From: Escherichia coli
GTDB taxonomy: Bacteria; Pseudomonadota; Gammaproteobacteria; Enterobacterales; Enterobacteriaceae
NCBI RefSeq assembly: GCF_003334785.1
Contig: NZ_QOWV01000007.1
Length of the DNA: 64,000 nt
Strand: one strand, 5' to 3'
The notes under the pieces: generated by a model
Database searches by the model: none
What the model saw: the letters and a program-made list of their open reading frames with translations, nothing else
What the model was told of the DNA's origin: nothing
Part shown: one piece after another, positions 1-47,900 of the stretch
Numbering within the stretch: position 1 is the stretch's first letter
How the letters are laid out: each line of letters opens with the position of its first letter
Translations under genes and position numbers: made by a program

Positions 1-1405
1 GCTAGAGCAGGATCGTATCGATCAACTGGTGCAGTTGGTTGGCGACAAAGCGACTGTGCGGCAAATGCTGGTTTCTCATCTGGGCCGCAGCTTCCGCCAG
101 GGGCGGCACATCCTGCGCGTGCTCTACTATCGTCCGTTGCGTAATCTGCTACCTGGCAGCGCATTGCGCCGTTCCGAAACCCATATCGCCCGGCAAATCT
201 TCAGTTCGCTAACGCGCATAAATGAGGAAAATGGGGAACTGGAAGCAGACATCGCCCACCACTGGCAGCAAATTTCACCGCTTCACTGGCGTTTCTTTTT
301 GCGTCCAGGAGTCCATTTTCACCATGGTCGTGAACTGGAAATGGACGATGTGATCGCCTCTTTAAAACGAATCAATACGCTGCCGCTCTATTCGCATATT
401 GCTGACATTGTGTCGCCGACGCCCTGGACGCTGGATATCCATCTCACGCAACCGGACCGCTGGTTACCGTTACTGCTGGGGCAAGTTCCGGCGATGATCC
501 TGCCGCGCGAATGGGAAACCCTCAGTAACTTTGCCAGCCATCCCATCGGCACCGGTCCGTATGCGGTGATTCGCAACAGCACCAATCAACTGAAAATTCA
601 GGCATTCGATGACTTCTTCGGTTACCGGGCATTAATCGACGAAGTTAACGTCTGGGTTCTGCCGGAAATTGCCGACGAGCCAGCCGGAGGGCTGATGCTA
701 AAAGGTCCACAGGGCGAGGAAAAAGAGATTGAAAGCCGCCTGGAGGAAGGTTGCTACTATTTACTGTTCGACAGCCGCACCCATCGCGGGGCGAATCAGC
801 AAGTCAGGGACTGGGTAAGCTATGTGCTTTCTCCAACTAATCTGGTCTATTTCGCTGAGGAACAGTACCAGCAACTGTGGTTCCCGGCTTATGGACTGCT
901 CCCCCGTTGGCACCATGCCCGCACCATAAAGAGCGAAAAACCGGCTGGCCTGGAAAGCCTCACCCTAACCTTTTATCAGGATCACAGTGAGCATCGGGTG
1001 ATTGCCGGGATCATGCAGCAGATTCTGGCAAGTCACCAGGTCACGCTGAAAATCAAAGAGATCGACTACGATCAGTGGCATACAGGAGAGATCGAAAGTG
1101 ATATCTGGCTAAACAGCGCCAACTTTACCCTGCCGCTGGACTTCTCTGTTTTCGCACATTTATGCGAAGTGCCACTGCTACAACATTGCATTCCCATTGA
1201 CTGGCAAGCCGACGCTGCTCGCTGGCGCAATGGCGAGATGAATCTGGCGAACTGGTGCCAGCAACTGGTCGCCAGCAAAGCGATGGTGCCATTATTGCAC
1301 CACTGGCTGATCATTCAGGGGCAACGCAGTATGCGCGGCCTGCGCATGAATACCCTCGGCTGGTTCGATTTTAAATCAGCGTGGTTTGCGCCACCGGATC
1401 CATGA
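1..1405 (+). CDS. sgrR: SgrR transcriptional regulator (5' end lies outside the window)
   Basis: ORF 29..1405 is open from the window edge; translation matches the C-terminal ~460 aa of E. coli SgrR (solute-binding-protein-like domain); followed by the thiB leader. Confidence 0.85.
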
Positions 1406-1439
1406 TTGCTGGTTGATAACAAAATCACTACACTAACGC

Positions 1440-1560
1440 CGTTCTCAACGGGGTGCCACGCGTACGCGTGCGCTGAGAAAATACCCGTCGAACCTGATCC
1501 GGATAACGCCGGCGAAGGGATTTGAGGCTCCTTCTCAAGTCCTTTGCCACTCTTTTTTGA
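1440..1560 (+). ncRNA. TPP riboswitch (THI-box) in the thiBPQ leader
   Basis: Conserved THI-element motifs read directly: ggggtgcc (about 1451), ctgagaaa (about 1473), acccg, aacctgatccggataacgccggcgaaggga (about 1491-1520), then a T-rich stretch before the thiB start. Confidence 0.8.
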
Positions 1561-1568
1561 GGTGCAAA

Positions 1569-2552
1569 GTGTTAAAAAAATGTCTGCCCCTGCTGTTGCT
1601 GTGCACAGCGCCCGTTTTCGCTAAACCCGTTCTGACTGTTTATACCTACGATTCCTTCGCCGCCGACTGGGGGCCTGGTCCGGTGGTTAAAAAAGCCTTT
1701 GAAGCCGACTGTAATTGCGAACTGAAACTGGTGGCGCTGGAAGATGGCGTTTCGCTTCTCAACCGTCTACGGATGGAAGGCAAAAACAGTAAAGCCGATG
1801 TGGTGCTGGGGCTGGATAACAACCTGTTAGACGCCGCCAGTAAAACCGGACTGTTTGCCAAAAGCGGTGTGGCAGCGGATGCCGTTAACGTTCCCGGCGG
1901 CTGGAATAATGACACTTTCGTACCGTTTGATTATGGCTACTTCGCCTTCGTTTATGACAAGAACAAACTGAAAAACCCGCCACAAAGCCTGAAAGAACTG
2001 GTTGAGAGCGATCAAAACTGGCGGGTGATTTATCAGGATCCGCGCACCAGTACACCGGGGCTGGGTCTGTTGCTATGGATGCAAAAAGTCTATGGCGATG
2101 ACGCCCCACAAGCCTGGCAGAAACTGGCGAAGAAAACGGTCACGGTCACCAAAGGCTGGAGCGAAGCCTACGGCCTGTTTTTAAAAGGTGAAAGCGATCT
2201 GGTACTGAGTTACACCACCTCTCCGGCTTATCACATTCTCGAAGAGAAGAAAGATAACTACGCCGCCGCGAACTTCAGCGAAGGTCACTATCTGCAAGTG
2301 GAAGTCGCCGCCCGCACCGCTGCCAGCAAGCAGCCGGAGCTGGCGCAAAAATTCCTCCAGTTTATGGTTTCTCCGGCTTTCCAGAATGCGATCCCAACCG
2401 GCAACTGGATGTATCCGGTGGCAAACATCACGCTGCCTGCCGGTTTTGAAAAATTGACCAAACCCGCAACCACGTTGGAGTTCACGCCAGCCGAAGTGGC
2501 GGCACAACGTCAGGCATGGATTAGCGAATGGCAACGCGCCGTCAGCCGTTAA
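1569..2552 (+). CDS. thiB: Thiamine ABC transporter periplasmic binding protein
   Basis: ORF 1557..2552; known N-terminus MLKKCLPLLLL begins at the GTG at 1569; signal peptide; first gene of thiBPQ. Confidence 0.93.
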   Translation: MLKKCLPLLLLCTAPVFAKPVLTVYTYDSFAADWGPGPVVKKAFEADCNCELKLVALEDGVSLLNRLRMEGKNSKADVVLGLDNNLLDAASKTGLFAKSGVAADAVNVPGGWNNDTFVPFDYGYFAFVYDKNKLKNPPQSLKELVESDQNWRVIYQDPRTSTPGLGLLLWMQKVYGDDAPQAWQKLAKKTVTVTKGWSEAYGLFLKGESDLVLSYTTSPAYHILEEKKDNYAAANFSEGHYLQVEVAARTAASKQPELAQKFLQFMVSPAFQNAIPTGNWMYPVANITLPAGFEKLTKPATTLEFTPAEVAAQRQAWISEWQRAVSR

Positions 2553-4138
2553 TTCCCGGCTGGTTAATTCCAGGTGTAAGCGCCACCACGCTGGTGGTAG
2601 CGGTTGCGCTGGCGGCGTTTCTCGCCCTGTGGTGGAACGCGCCGCAGGATGACTGGGTGGCAGTCTGGCAGGACAGCTATCTGTGGCATGTGGTGCGCTT
2701 CTCCTTCTGGCAGGCGTTTCTCTCGGCACTGCTCTCTGTCATACCCGCGATATTCCTCGCCCGCGCGCTCTATCGCAGGCGCTTTCCGGGTCGGCTGGCG
2801 CTGTTGCGTCTGTGTGCAATGACCTTGATCCTCCCGGTGTTGGTCGCTGTTTTCGGCATTCTTAGCGTCTATGGTCGCCAGGGCTGGCTGGCAACACTCT
2901 GCCAATCGCTCGGTCTGGAGTGGACCTTTTCGCCCTACGGCCTGCAAGGTATTTTGCTGGCCCATGTGTTTTTTAATCTGCCGATGGCGAGCCGCTTATT
3001 ACTCCAGGCACTGGAAAACATCCCCGGCGAACAGCGTCAACTTGCCGCCCAGCTTGGGATGCGTAGCTGGCATTTTTTCCGCTTCGTCGAATGGCCGTGG
3101 TTACGGCGACAAATCCCGCCGGTTGCTGCGCTTATCTTTATGCTCTGTTTCGCCAGCTTCGCCACCGTGCTATCGCTGGGGGGCGGTCCGCAGGCGACCA
3201 CTATCGAGCTGGCAATCTATCAGGCGCTGAGTTACGACTACGATCCTGCCCGCGCGGCAATGCTGGCGCTGCTCCAGATGGTGTGCTGCCTCGGGCTGGT
3301 GCTGTTGAGTCAGCGATTGAGTAAGGCCATTGCGCCCGGCACCACGCTGCTGCAAGGCTGGCGCGACCCGGACGATCGTCTGCATAGCCGCATTTGCGAC
3401 ACGGTGTTAATTGTGCTGGCGCTGCTGCTGTTGCTGCCACCGTTACTGGCGGTGATCGTCGATGGGGTAAATCGCCAGTTGCCGGAAGTGCTGGCACAAC
3501 CGGTGCTGTGGCAGGCGCTGTGGACCTCGTTGCGTATTGCGCTGGCGGCAGGTGTATTGTGCGTAGTGCTGACCATGATGCTGCTATGGAGCAGTCGCGA
3601 ACTGCGGGCGCGGCAGAAAATGCTGGCGGGTCAGGTGCTGGAGATGAGCGGCATGTTGATCCTCGCCATGCCGGGGATTGTGCTGGCTACCGGCTTCTTT
3701 TTACTGCTCAACAACACTATCGGCCTGCCACAATCTGCTGACGGCATTGTGATTTTCACCAATGCGTTAATGGCGATCCCTTATGCGCTGAAAGTGCTGG
3801 AAAACCCGATGCGCGATATCACCGCCCGCTACAGCATGTTATGTCAGTCGCTGGGGATTGAAGGCTGGTCACGCTTAAAAGTGGTGGAGCTGCGCGCCCT
3901 GAAACGTCCACTGGCGCAGGCGCTGGCCTTTGCATGCGTGCTGTCGATTGGTGATTTTGGCGTGGTGGCGTTGTTCGGTAACGATGATTTCCGCACCCTG
4001 CCGTTTTATCTCTACCAGCAAATTGGCTCCTATCGCAGCCAGGACGGTGCGGTCACCGCGTTAATTCTGCTGCTGCTCTGTTTTCTGCTGTTTACCGTGA
4101 TTGAAAAACTACCGGGGCGAAATGTTAAAACTGACTGA
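2528..4138 (+). CDS. thiP: Thiamine ABC transporter permease
   Basis: 536-aa ORF, polytopic membrane protein with duplicated ABC permease domains; overlaps the thiB 3' end. Confidence 0.95.
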
Positions 4139-6662: not shown

Positions 6663-8701
<2,039 letters not shown>

Positions 8702-8711
8702 GGACACGATA

Positions 8712-10214
8712 ATGACGATTTTTGATAATTATGAAGTGTGGTTTGTCATTGGCAGCCAGCATCTGTATGGCCCGGAAACCCTGCGTCAGGTCACCCAACA
8801 TGCCGAGCACGTCGTTAATGCGCTGAATACGGAAGCGAAACTGCCCTGCAAACTGGTGTTGAAACCGCTGGGCACCACGCCGGATGAAATCACCGCTATT
8901 TGCCGCGACGCGAATTACGACGATCGTTGCGCTGGTCTGGTGGTGTGGCTGCACACCTTCTCCCCGGCCAAAATGTGGATCAACGGCCTGACCATGCTCA
9001 ACAAACCGTTGCTGCAATTCCACACCCAGTTCAACGCGGCGCTGCCGTGGGACAGTATCGATATGGACTTTATGAACCTGAACCAGACTGCACATGGCGG
9101 TCGCGAGTTCGGCTTCATTGGCGCGCGTATGCGTCAGCAACATGCCGTGGTTACCGGTCACTGGCAGGATAAACAAGCCCATGAGCGTATCGGCTCCTGG
9201 ATGCGTCAGGCGGTCTCTAAACAGGATACCCGTCATCTGAAAGTCTGCCGATTTGGCGATAACATGCGTGAAGTGGCGGTCACCGATGGCGATAAAGTTG
9301 CCGCACAGATCAAGTTCGGTTTCTCCGTCAATACCTGGGCGGTTGGCGATCTGGTGCAGGTGGTGAACTCCATCAGCGACGGCGATGTTAACGCGCTGGT
9401 CGATGAGTACGAAAGCTGCTACACCATGACGCCTGCCACACAAATCCACGGCAAAAAACGACAGAACGTGCTGGAAGCGGCGCGTATTGAGCTGGGGATG
9501 AAGCGTTTCCTGGAACAAGGTGGCTTCCACGCGTTCACCACCACCTTTGAAGATTTGCACGGTCTGAAACAGCTTCCTGGTCTGGCCGTACAGCGTCTGA
9601 TGCAGCAGGGTTACGGCTTTGCGGGCGAAGGCGACTGGAAAACTGCCGCCCTGCTTCGCATCATGAAGGTGATGTCAACCGGTCTGCAGGGCGGCACCTC
9701 CTTTATGGAGGACTACACCTATCACTTCGAGAAAGGTAATGACCTGGTGCTCGGCTCCCATATGCTGGAAGTCTGCCCGTCGATCGCCGCAGAAGAGAAA
9801 CCGATCCTCGACGTTCAGCATCTCGGTATTGGTGGTAAGGACGATCCTGCCCGCCTGATCTTCAATACCCAAACCGGCCCAGCGATTGTCGCCAGCTTGA
9901 TTGATCTCGGCGATCGTTACCGTCTACTGGTTAACTGCATCGACACGGTGAAAACACCGCACTCCCTGCCGAAACTGCCGGTGGCGAATGCGCTGTGGAA
10001 AGCGCAACCGGATCTGCCAACTGCTTCCGAAGCGTGGATCCTCGCTGGTGGCGCGCACCATACCGTCTTCAGCCATGCACTGAACCTCAACGATATGCGC
10101 CAATTCGCCGAGATGCACGACATTGAAATCACGGTGATTGATAACGACACACGCCTGCCAGCGTTTAAAGACGCGCTGCGCTGGAACGAAGTGTATTACG
10201 GGTTTCGTCGCTAA
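8712..10214 (+). CDS. araA: L-arabinose isomerase
   Basis: ORF 8688..10214; known N-terminus [20 protein letters not shown] at 8712; 500 aa. Confidence 0.96.
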
Positions 10215-10660
10215 GTAGCCGCATCCGGTATGTAACGCCTGATGCGACGCTGACGCGTCTTATCTGGCCTACACGCTGCGATTTTGTAGGCCGGATAAGC
10301 AAAGCGCATCCGGCATTCAACGCCTGATGCGACGCTGGCGCGTCTTATCAGGCCTACGCGCTGCGATTTTGTAGGCCGGATAAGCAAAGCGCATCCGGCA
10401 TTCAACGCCTGATGCGACGCTGGCGCGTCTTATCAGGCCTACGCGCTGCGATTTTGTAGGCCGGATAAGCAAAGCGCATCCGGCATTCAACGCCTGATGC
10501 GACGCTGGCGCGTCTTATCAGGCCTACGCGCTGCGATTTTGTAGGCCGGATAAGCAAAGCGCATCCGGCATTCAACGCCTGATGCGACGCTGGCGCGTCT
10601 TATCAGGCCTACACGCTGCGATTTTGTAGGCCGGATAAGCAAAGCGCATCCGGCACGAAG
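10215..10660. repeat. BIME/REP array: five tandem copies of an ~85-bp unit between araA and araD
   Basis: Motif gcctgatgcgacgctg recurs at 10237, 10322, 10407, 10492 and 10577 (period 85 bp); each unit holds two inverted REP palindromes (gcctgatgcgacgctggcgcgtcttatcaggcctac / gtaggccggataagcaaagcgcatccggca). Confidence 0.9.
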
Positions 10661-10668
10661 GAGTCAAC

Positions 10669-11364
10669 ATGTTAGAAGATCTCAAACGCCAGGTATTAGA
10701 AGCCAACCTGGCGCTGCCAAAACACAACCTGGTCACGCTCACATGGGGCAACGTCAGCGCCGTTGATCGCGAGCGCGGCGTCTTTGTGATCAAACCTTCC
10801 GGCGTCGATTACAGCGTCATGACCGCTGACGATATGGTCGTGGTTAGCATCGAAACCGGTGAAGTGGTTGAAGGTACGAAAAAGCCCTCCTCCGACACGC
10901 CAACTCACCGGCTGCTCTATCAGGCATTCCCCTCCATTGGCGGCATTGTGCATACGCACTCGCGCCACGCCACCATCTGGGCGCAGGCGGGTCAGTCGAT
11001 TCCAGCAACCGGCACCACCCACGCCGACTATTTCTACGGCACCATTCCCTGCACCCGCAAAATGACCGACGCAGAAATCAACGGCGAATATGAGTGGGAA
11101 ACCGGTAACGTCATCGTAGAAACCTTTGAAAAACAGGGTATCGATGCAGCGCAAATGCCCGGCGTTCTGGTCCATTCCCACGGCCCGTTTGCATGGGGCA
11201 AAAATGCCGAAGATGCGGTGCATAACGCCATCGTGCTGGAAGAGGTCGCTTATATGGGGATATTCTGCCGTCAGTTAGCGCCGCAGTTACCGGATATGCA
11301 GCAAACGCTGCTGGATAAACACTATCTGCGTAAGCATGGCGCGAAGGCATATTACGGGCAGTAA
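10669..11364 (+). CDS. araD: L-ribulose-5-phosphate 4-epimerase
   Basis: 231-aa [17 protein letters not shown]..., class II aldolase fold. Confidence 0.96.
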
Positions 11365-11395
11365 TGACTGTATAAAACCACAGCCAATCAAACGA

Positions 11396-11425
11396 AACCA
11401 GGCTATACTCAAGCCTGGTTTTTTG
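11396..11425 (+). terminator. Rho-independent terminator of araBAD
   Basis: aaccaggc-loop-gcctggtt stem followed by a T-run (ttttttga). Confidence 0.75.
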
Positions 11426-11438
11426 ATGGATTTTCAGC

Positions 11439-13790
11439 GTGGCGCAGGCAGGTTTTATCTTAACCCGACACTGGCGGGACACCCCGCAAGGGACAGAAGT
11501 CTCCTTCTGGCTGGCGACGGACAACGGGCCGTTGCAGGTTACGCTTGCACCGCAAGAGTCCGTGGCGTTTATTCCCGCCGATCAGGTTCCCCGCGCTCAG
11601 CATATTTTGCAGGGTGAACAAGGCTTTCGCCTGACACCGCTGGCGTTAAAGGATTTTCACCGCCAGCCGGTGTATGGCCTTTACTGTCGCGCCCATCGCC
11701 AATTGATGAATTACGAAAAGCGCCTGCGTGAAGGTGGCGTTACCGTCTACGAGGCCGATGTGCGTCCGCCAGAACGCTATCTGATGGAGCGGTTTATCAC
11801 CTCACCGGTGTGGGTCGAGGGTGATATGCACAATGGCACTATCGTTAATGCCCGTCTGAAACCGCATCCCGACTATCGTCCGCCGCTCAAGTGGGTTTCT
11901 ATAGATATTGAAACCACCCGCCACGGTGAGCTGTACTGCATCGGCCTGGAAGGCTGCGGGCAGCGCATCGTTTATATGCTGGGGCCGGAGAATGGCGACG
12001 CCTCCTCGCTTGATTTCGAACTGGAATACGTCGCCAGCCGCCCGCAGTTGCTGGAAAAACTCAACGCCTGGTTTGCCAACTACGATCCTGATGTGATCAT
12101 CGGTTGGAACGTGGTGCAGTTCGATCTGCGAATGCTGCAAAAACATGCCGAGCGTTACCGTCTTCCGCTGCGTCTTGGGCGCGATAATAGCGAGCTGGAG
12201 TGGCGCGAGCACGGCTTTAAAAACGGCGTCTTTTTTGCCCAGGCTAAAGGTCGGCTAATTATCGACGGTATCGAGGCGCTGAAATCCGCGTTCTGGAATT
12301 TCTCTTCATTCTCGCTGGAAACTGTCGCTCAGGAGCTATTAGGCGAAGGAAAATCTATCGATAACCCGTGGGATCGAATGGACGAAATTGACCGCCGTTT
12401 CGCCGAAGATAAACCTGCGCTGGCAACTTATAACCTGAAAGATTGCGAGCTGGTGACGCAGATCTTCCACAAAACTGAAATCATGCCATTTTTACTCGAA
12501 CGGGCAACGGTGAACGGCCTGCCGGTGGACCGACACGGCGGTTCGGTGGCGGCATTTGGTCATCTCTATTTTCCGCGAATGCATCGCGCTGGTTATGTCG
12601 CGCCTAATCTCGGCGAAGTGCCGCCGCACGCCAGCCCTGGCGGCTACGTGATGGATTCACGGCCAGGGCTTTATGATTCAGTGCTGGTGCTGGACTATAA
12701 AAGCCTGTACCCGTCGATCATCCGCACCTTTCTGATTGATCCCGTCGGGCTGGTGGAAGGCATGGCGCAGCCTGATCCAGAGCACAGTACCGAAGGTTTT
12801 CTCGATGCCTGGTTCTCGCGAGAAAAACATTGCCTGCCGGAGATTGTGACTAACATCTGGCACGGGCGCGATGAAGCCAAACGCCAGGGTAACAAACCGC
12901 TGTCGCAGGCGCTGAAAATCATCATGAATGCCTTTTATGGCGTGCTCGGCACCACCGCCTGCCGCTTCTTCGATCCGCGGCTGGCATCGTCGATCACCAT
13001 GCGTGGTCATCAGATCATGCGGCAAACCAAAGCGTTGATTGAAGCACAGGGCTACGACGTTATCTACGGCGATACCGACTCAACGTTTGTCTGGCTGAAA
13101 GGCGCACATTCGGAAGAAGAAGCGGCGAAAATCGGTCGTGCACTGGTGCAGCACGTTAACGCCTGGTGGGCGGAAACGCTGCAAAAACAACGGCTGACCA
13201 GCGCATTAGAACTGGAGTATGAAACCCATTTCTGCCGTTTTCTGATGCCAACCATTCGCGGAGCCGATACCGGCAGTAAAAAGCGTTATGCCGGACTGAT
13301 TCAGGAGGGCGACAAGCAGCGGATGGTGTTTAAAGGGCTGGAAACCGTGCGCACCGACTGGACGCCGCTGGCCCAGCAGTTTCAGCAGGAGCTATACCTG
13401 CGCATCTTCCGCAACGAGCCATATCAGGAATATGTACGCGAAACCATCGACAAACTGATGGCGGGTGAACTGGATGCGCGACTGGTTTACCGTAAACGCC
13501 TTCGCCGTCCGCTGAGCGAGTATCAGCGTAATGTGCCGCCTCATGTACGCGCCGCTCGCCTTGCCGATGAAGAAAACCAAAAGCGTGGTCGCCCCTTGCA
13601 ATATCAGAATCGCGGCACCATTAAGTACGTATGGACCACCAACGGCCCGGAGCCGCTGGACTACCAACGTTCACCACTGGATTACGAACACTATCTGACC
13701 CGCCAGCTACAACCCGTGGCGGAGGGAATACTCCCTTTTATTGAGGATAATTTTGCTACACTTATGACCGGGCAACTTGGGCTATTTTGA
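11439..13790 (+). CDS. polB: DNA polymerase II
   Basis: 783-aa ORF; B-family polymerase motifs (DIETT exonuclease motif, YGDTDS). Confidence 0.96.
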
Positions 13791-13954
13791 GCAAAAAAAA
13801 GAGTTCGCCAGATACCATTTTGATGCGTGACGAATGCTTTGCCATCCAGTACCATAGCGCCCTTTCCATTCCTGGACCTGAATAACACCACTACCTCATA
13901 AGCACGGTAGCGGGTGGTTATTGCCTGCAATTAAAGATATAGAGCCGAACACAT

Positions 13955-42458: not shown

Positions 42459-42631
42459 GCCGGATGCGGCGTAAACGCCTTATCCAACTCTGCTGGAGAG
42501 CAACCGTAGGCCGGATAAGATGCGCCAGCATCGCATCCGGCGATAGCTGTCGGATGCGGCATAAACGCCTTATCCAACCCGGCTGGAGAGCAACCGTAAG
42601 CCGGATAAGATGCGCCAGCATCGCATCCGGC
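42459..42631. repeat. BIME/REP array (two ~86-bp tandem units) between caiE and caiF
   Basis: Repeated gccggatgcggcgtaaacgccttatccaac...gccggataagatgcgccagcatcgcatccggcga units. Confidence 0.85.
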
Positions 42632-42662
42632 GACCAGGTCGCACGGTATCATCGAAATGACA

Positions 42663-47707: not shown

Positions 47708-47900
47708 AACACCCTCCAGAGAATATTCACTCACTTTATTTGCATATTAATTCACAATGATGACGTAAATCAATGCAAATCTGCTTACCGACGAATTTCT
47801 GGCAAACGGCGGCATTCTGGAGATATGGGCGCTAAAAGTCAACTTAATGGCAGGATTTTTTATATTATTTTGTGGCTCATGCATGTTTTACAGGCATTAA
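47708..47900 (-). promoter_or_regulatory. carAB promoter region with ARG-box-like operators
   Basis: Immediately upstream of carA: minus-strand tgaattaatatgcaaataaagtgagtgaatattc (about 47721-47760) resembles tandem ArgR boxes (TNTGAATnnnnATTCAn) overlapping promoter P2. Confidence 0.6.

Follow-up and report, generated by a model that had tools for sequence, protein, structure and literature searches.

What fills the long gap between araA and araD in this E. coli genome, how did it reach its present length, and does that length matter to the araBAD operon? In the window (the whole 64-kb stretch of DNA analysed here), the two genes are separated by 454 bp (10215–10668, from the open reading frame list and direct reading of the sequence). 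Tandem Repeats Finder reported 10220–10655 as a single tandem array with a period of 85, 5.1 copies, 98% matches, 0% indels and a score of 823, and an independent repeat search placed the array copies 85, 85 and 85 nt apart. The first-pass annotation, which had described five copies of an 85-bp unit at 10215–10660 in a 454-bp gap, was accurate in all of these values. Laid out in rows of 85 nt, the gap and its flanks contain the following features.

8712–10214, + strand: araA (L-arabinose isomerase) coding sequence, from identity to the annotated Stbl4 locus and reading of the sequence
10212–10214, + strand: araA stop codon TAA, with GTAG directly 3′ of it
10215–10229, + strand: truncated Y-type REP remnant (GTAGC + CGCATCCGGT), read directly against the full Y REP GTAGGCCGGATAAGCAAAGCGCATCCGGC
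10220–10655, no strand assigned: BIME-2 tandem array, 85-bp unit × 5.1, from Tandem Repeats Finder, the repeat search and the row layout
10220–10304, no strand assigned: unit U1, from the row layout
10305–10389, no strand assigned: unit U2a, from the row layout
10390–10474, no strand assigned: unit U2b, from the row layout
10475–10559, no strand assigned: unit U2c, from the row layout
10560–10644, no strand assigned: unit U3, from the row layout
10645–10654, no strand assigned: partial unit, from the row layout
10660–10663, + strand: araD Shine-Dalgarno GGAG, 5 nt past the last Y REP and 5 nt ahead of the ATG, by direct reading
10669–11364, + strand: araD (L-ribulose-5-phosphate 4-epimerase) coding sequence, from the open reading frame list and the annotation of the identical Stbl4 sequence

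The gene names can be relied on because positions 7000–13900 of the window are 100% identical to the annotated Stbl4 chromosome record (araB, araA, araD, polB), in which araA is annotated at 1713–3215 of the locus. Read in order, the gap consists of GTAGC, U1, three identical units, the fifth unit, the 10-nt partial unit and ACGAAGGAGTCAAC, which includes the araD Shine-Dalgarno GGAG. The Y REP remnant behind the araA stop is just the GTAG tag plus the 3′ arm, 15 nt in all. U2a, U2b and U2c (units 2, 3 and 4) are identical to one another, U1 differs from them at six positions and U3 (unit 5) at one; the count of five units in the window is that of one assembled sequence. Two reverse-strand open reading frames in this region, 10211–10405 (64 aa) and 10572–10793 (73 aa), were rejected as genes; they are a by-product of the repeats, and all records treat the region as intergenic.

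Each unit holds one Z2 REP of 36 nt and one Y REP of 29 nt in opposite orientation, separated by two kinds of linker.

10237–10272, + strand: Z2 REP no. 1, with one mismatch to the pattern, from a pattern search
10322–10357, 10407–10442, 10492–10527 and 10577–10612, + strand: the other Z2 REPs, from the pattern search
10286–10314, − strand: Y REP no. 1 (GCCGGATGCGCTTTGCTTATCCGGCCTAC), from a pattern search
10371–10399, 10456–10484, 10541–10569 and 10626–10654, − strand: the other Y REPs, from the pattern search
10315–10321, recurring every 85 nt, + strand: head-to-head linker between Y and Z2, ATTCAAC, 7 nt, by direct reading; the U1 version is TATGTAA
10358–10370 (one example), + strand: tail-to-tail linker GCGCTGCGATTTT, 13 nt, by direct reading

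Within the array the Z2 pattern occurs five times on the + strand and the Y pattern five times on the − strand, with a chance expectation of 0 for each, which bears out the earlier description of inverted REP pairs in a tandem BIME array. Two families are distinguished (Ton-Hoang et al., 2012, PMC3333891): BIME-2 elements combine z2 with y REPs, have a short linker and occur as several tandem copies, and BIME-1 elements combine z1 with y REPs and occur singly, their long linker often containing an IHF site. The araA-araD array is a BIME-2 by every structural feature of that class: it is composed of y and z2 REPs, both of which form hairpins that can be aligned with the corresponding stems of Rfam naRNA4; these alternate with short linkers (7 nt head-to-head and 13 nt tail-to-tail); and they are repeated in tandem in a number that varies between strains (5.1 copies here, one to five elsewhere). 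The IHF consensus WATCAANNNNTTR has three matches in the 64-kb window and none within 10215–10668. We rejected identity with BIME-1 (RIP) because the IHF consensus is absent from the array, which also has z2 as its partner REP and a head-to-head linker of 7 nt. The earlier suggestion that the array binds IHF does not fit such an element either.

Is the window's copy number unusual? In K-12 MG1655, the end of araD at 66550 and the start of araA at 66835 leave a 284-bp gap with three units. This agrees with the first-pass annotation, which had given about 284 bp and three units for the K-12 gap, and its count of two units more in this strain also proved right. The MG1655 array reads U1-U2-U3 and that of the window U1-U2-U2-U2-U3, so that the MG1655 middle unit is present three times and both added units are exact copies of it. 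By the difference between the 454-bp and 284-bp gaps, the addition can be placed as follows, the choice of the "extra" pair among three identical U2 copies being arbitrary.

10390–10559, no strand assigned: two 85-bp units beyond K-12 MG1655

Using 901 bp across the gap as a megablast query, we matched all 5,426 complete E. coli genomes. Gap lengths of 114, 168, 199, 284, 369, 423 and 454 bp occur in different strains. In an evenly spaced sample of 38 full-coverage rows, with the top match's own class left out, 14 of 38 genomes had a span of 731 (three units, inferred from the span), nine a span of 646 (two units, likewise inferred), four a span of 561 (one unit, also inferred) and ten a span of 615, which in E148 is one unit plus a 54-bp element. 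This element, the GC-rich palindromic TTTTCCCCCTCGCCCCTTTGGGGAGAGGGCCGGGGTGAGGGGAAACGACCTCTC, lies past the last Y REP and ahead of the araD ribosome-binding site in E148, PT62 and 33F4, where it stands in place of ACGA ahead of the araD Shine-Dalgarno; the matching span occurs in about one quarter of the sampled genomes. It may be akin to a boxC-type repeat.

Long alleles were counted with an array-only query at an E-value limit of 1e-140, which passes only alignments of more than three units. As estimated from bit scores, five-unit arrays are counted robustly at identities down to about 88%, and four-unit arrays of less than about 93% identity, for instance in phylogroup B2, may have escaped the count. 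Four or more units were found in 15 of the 5,426 complete genomes. Three of the 5,426 carry five units, the longest allele in the set (Stbl4, XL10-Gold and a record labelled TOP10), and at least 12 carry four, a lower bound (GM4792, XL1-Blue, JX21CE35, FACU 2024, two BL21 derivatives, PT62/LP5-1, 32F4/33F4/33E and TB06052). The comparison of gap lengths across strains proposed at the outset thus returned varying lengths, with five units rare. The first-pass annotation had also held that the same array in K-12 and other strains would speak against two units peculiar to this strain: reference K-12 lacks it, having three units, and three K-12-derived laboratory assemblies carry it in identical form. 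Over the 901 bp across the gap, the window is 100% identical to these three assemblies (Stbl4, XL10-Gold and 'TOP10').

Could the true array have only three or four units, with the tandem repeat miscounted during assembly? Copy-number errors classically arise where a tandem repeat exceeds the length of short reads. Moreover, six of the 15 genomes with at least four units are laboratory strains with neighbouring 2021 accessions (CP080620, CP081007-9, CP081489 and CP083273), for which a single pipeline is possible, and the BL21 assemblies disagree, with three units in NC_012947 (BL21-Gold, span 731) and four in CP081489 (BL21(DE3)). The long alleles of these commercial strains may be true gains within stock lineages, or may stem from a pipeline that the records have in common. 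However, a 454-bp array can be spanned by long reads, and even by paired 250-nt reads with inserts, and the identical five-unit sequence is shared by the window and three RefSeq assemblies, from which the window differs at other places. Nine field isolates, unrelated and deposited by other submitters, also have four-unit alleles, and copy-number variation of BIME-2 was shown by PCR-era work, as cited in PMC3333891. We therefore regard a miscount of the array as unlikely.

The relationship of the window to these laboratory strains was examined along its length. There are four differences from MG1655 over the first 10.5 kb, and the window stays K-12-like to about 33 kb, with at most one difference per kb apart from a tandem-repeat length change at 18 kb. 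From about 34 kb (the fix/cai region) to its end, it diverges by 1–1.5% from both MG1655 and Stbl4; across the stretch matching this distal part, Stbl4 is K-12-like. Many wild isolates (98-3133, STEC409, NCTC9041 and P377) match the distal part of the window at 100% identity, and its proximal stretch is likewise identical to wild isolates. The divergence and the wild-isolate match beyond about 34 kb led us to reject the idea that the sequence is one of Stbl4, XL10-Gold or 'TOP10'. By these comparisons, the window is a mosaic relative to K-12 and is wild-type-like, not a K-12 laboratory strain. One of its closest wild relatives, the near-identical LR-64-2, has a three-unit array. Because LR-64-2 has three units and the window is distinct from the laboratory assemblies, the five-unit expansion looks recent in the window's lineage and independent of the one in laboratory strains. 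By contrast with the identical U2 copies of the window, the units of the four-unit arrays in PT62 and 33F4 differ from each other at several positions; these arrays are, judging from the divergence of their units, old.

The same comparisons turned up several features that lie apart from the question of copy number. In P377, a close relative of the window (NZ_CM195732.1, locus 1–1196), the gene of an IS621 (IS110-family) transposase sits inside a Z2 REP of the araA-araD BIME, with its insertion point just ahead of ...CTACGCGCTGCGATTTT. IS621 is reported to prefer REP sequences, and the P377 insertion fits this preference. The record labelled TOP10 (NZ_CP080620.1) has an intact araC-araBAD region. 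DH10B (NC_010473.1) has a deletion from within rapA to within cra that includes polB, ara and leu, and TOP10 presumably shares this ara-leu deletion; NZ_CP080620.1 does not look like a genuine TOP10/DH10B-type strain.

Elsewhere in the window, a 4,051-bp segment (56808–60858) stands where MG1655 has IS1A alone (19796–20563), in a neighbourhood annotated with espX1 and a fimbrial usher in matching genomes; K-12 thus appears to carry an IS1-associated deletion at the counterpart of the segment. At 18084–18195, a 15-bp tandem repeat of 7.5 copies has one unit plus one base more than MG1655 at about 59118, the yabP/yabQ junction, and the single-base difference may be the reason for the two split genes of K-12. 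A second BIME lies between caiE and caiF (42461–42633), with a 90-bp unit × 1.9 and an Rfam naRNA4 match on the − strand at 42509–42579; MG1655 has one degenerate REP only at this site, which makes it a presence/absence polymorphism of a BIME. Rfam also matched three further RNA elements in the window.

1439–1538, + strand: TPP riboswitch, upstream of thiBPQ
47755–47807, − strand: ES003 sRNA
63601–63753, + strand: sok antitoxin RNA of the hokC/sokC locus

How did the added units arise? What has been added is an internal unit, duplicated perfectly in tandem between near-identical units, and we consider the duplication recent because the extra units exactly copy the middle K-12 unit. Two routes would give this product. 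In the first, replication slippage or unequal exchange would occur between near-identical neighbouring units; in the second, strands would be transferred by the REP-associated tyrosine transposase TnpA-REP. TnpA-REP joins BIMEs in vitro and has been proposed as the cause of their tandem amplification, and how many tandem BIMEs a locus holds is known to differ between strains (Ton-Hoang et al., PMC3333891). The five-unit allele most likely arose by slippage or by REP-transposase action between identical units, two routes that the sequence fits alike. Some of the long alleles occur in XL1-Blue, XL10-Gold and Stbl4, which from vendor genotypes we take to be recA1 strains; if they are, the presence of four and five units in them argues against a need for RecA in the expansion. 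Taken together, we read the locus as the known BIME-2 of araA-araD in an unusually long, recently tandem-duplicated allele, with near-neutral extra units and with roles carried over by analogy from its family, and put the probability of this reading at roughly 88%. The element, its class and its strain-variable copy number are already in the literature (PMC3333891 and its reference 39, Bachellier et al. 1997), and the exact five-unit allele is already in public genomes.

Does the added length change what the array could do? We infer from its position within the araBAD transcript that the array is transcribed. The Z2 RNA hairpin has a predicted energy of −21.4 kcal/mol (z −5.5) and the Y hairpin, in its + strand version, −12.9 kcal/mol (z −3.4), each beating all 200 shuffles, and the predicted fold of a 496-nt region reaches −233.4 kcal/mol (z −7.5). 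Both the Z2 and Y folds are thus stable hairpins 3′ of a cistron, as expected of a REP mRNA stabiliser or attenuator. The + strand, which is the sense strand of araBAD, also holds four modules of Y hairpin, linker and Z2 hairpin that resemble naRNA4.

10289–10354, + strand: naRNA4-like module, Rfam RF02564, 60.2 bits, E 3.9e-8
10374–10439, 10459–10524 and 10544–10609, + strand: the other naRNA4-like modules, Rfam RF02564

All four matches cover the full length of the model (1–77) and score above its threshold by the narrow margin of 0.7 bits (60.2 against a gathering score of 59.5). With the added units, the number of these modules rises from two to four. The Rfam family naRNA4 (RF02564) was derived from the Y-l-Z2 units of REP325, a canonical BIME-2 array; HU binding, DNA condensation and a role in the nucleoid are established for REP325 RNA (naRNA4) only (Qian et al., 2015, PMC4550694).

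From the properties of the BIME-2 family, several effects of the array would be expected. REP hairpins are attenuators and barriers to exonucleolytic decay (summarised in PMC12306157), and by analogy the ten strong stem-loops in the araBAD mRNA would block 3′-to-5′ exonucleases and so stabilise the upstream araB-araA part. The hairpins may also attenuate read-through into araD. We found no promoter-like or intrinsic-terminator-like site in the array, so that attenuation would need the REP hairpins or Rho. As RNA, the four Y-linker-Z2 modules might act through their resemblance to the HU-binding naRNA4. As DNA, the array would be a preferred site of gyrase binding and cleavage, as is the BIME-2 class: BIME-2 elements, and mainly their y REPs, are enriched in gyrase cleavage sites irrespective of transcription, with sites named at sucC-sucB and tldD-yhdP (PMC6379681). 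The gyrase binding and the effect on mRNA stability that the first-pass annotation suggested are plausible for this locus. A search for experimental literature on araA/araD together with REP elements returned nothing relevant.

A local fold of 10620–10665 pairs GAUUUU of the last tail-to-tail linker with GGAGUC at the araD Shine-Dalgarno, forming six pairs, of which three are G-U. This pairing lengthens the last Y hairpin and is independent of copy number; in the model, a weak occlusion of the araD ribosome-binding site by it is possible.

The added REP pairs could in principle have been selected as a regulatory allele, favoured through AraA:AraD stoichiometry, local supercoiling or the dosage of naRNA4-like RNA. 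The ability of REP and BIME elements to attenuate transcription and stabilise upstream mRNA (PMC12306157) is consistent with this, as are the doubling of the naRNA4-like modules and the presence of expanded alleles in several backgrounds independent of one another (derivatives of K-12 and of B, and wild strains). Expanded alleles are nevertheless very rare (15/5,426) and scattered, as would be expected of recurrent mutation without spread, and the close relatives of the window have three units. Furthermore, the units at the two ends, next to the araA stop on one side and the araD ribosome-binding site on the other, are unaltered and are the same in all K-12-like alleles. Because long alleles are rare and scattered, we consider selection possible but do not favour it, and the odds against it are long. 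Copy number might further be imagined as a mutable dial, with gains that recur independently (in the wild and in recA1 gyrA96 cloning strains), alter AraA:AraD, gyrase loading or naRNA4-like RNA and are selected; we think this very improbable. Near-neutrality is instead to be expected because these end units have not changed. The added pair is most probably neutral, or else no more than a mild quantitative modifier.

The BIME-2 of araA-araD acts as a variable-number tandem repeat, its alleles ranging from one unit to five. Its length could serve as a cheap PCR marker that separates close strains or laboratory stocks, and a difference in length is to be expected whenever araBAD is amplified or engineered. 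If copy number tunes araD expression or gyrase loading, the natural series from one to five units is a ready test set for the long-debated function of REP and BIME elements. Beyond such uses, the five-unit allele matters little, being a rare allele of a known variable repeat and not a new kind of element.

Set against known systems, the array shares with REP325/naRNA4 its tandem Y-linker-Z2 units (six in REP325) and, presumably, transcription from the promoter of an upstream gene, but its linker is 7 nt against 13, and its Y loop leaves 3 nt unaligned against 8 and so is the shorter one. With BIME-1 (RIP) it has in common an inverted REP pair that includes a Y REP; BIME-1, however, has z1 in a single copy and a long L linker with an IHF site, whereas the array has z2, a 7-nt linker, tandem copies and no IHF consensus. 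Like the bacterial VNTR loci used in MLVA typing, it consists of head-to-tail units whose number differs between close strains with identical flanks, but it repeats a structured, palindromic REP pair whose protein partners are known, where a VNTR is an anonymous repeat. The closest likeness in structure is to BIME-2, family 2 of the bacterial interspersed mosaic elements of Gilson, Bachellier and Hofnung: alternating inverted y and z2 REPs, a short head-to-head linker, tandem copies, an intergenic position within an operon and a number that varies between strains. The Y REP of the araA-araD array has a short, 5-nt loop region compared with BIME-2, and the array is otherwise the same in kind; the allele alone is unusual, with five units against three in K-12 and mostly one to three elsewhere.
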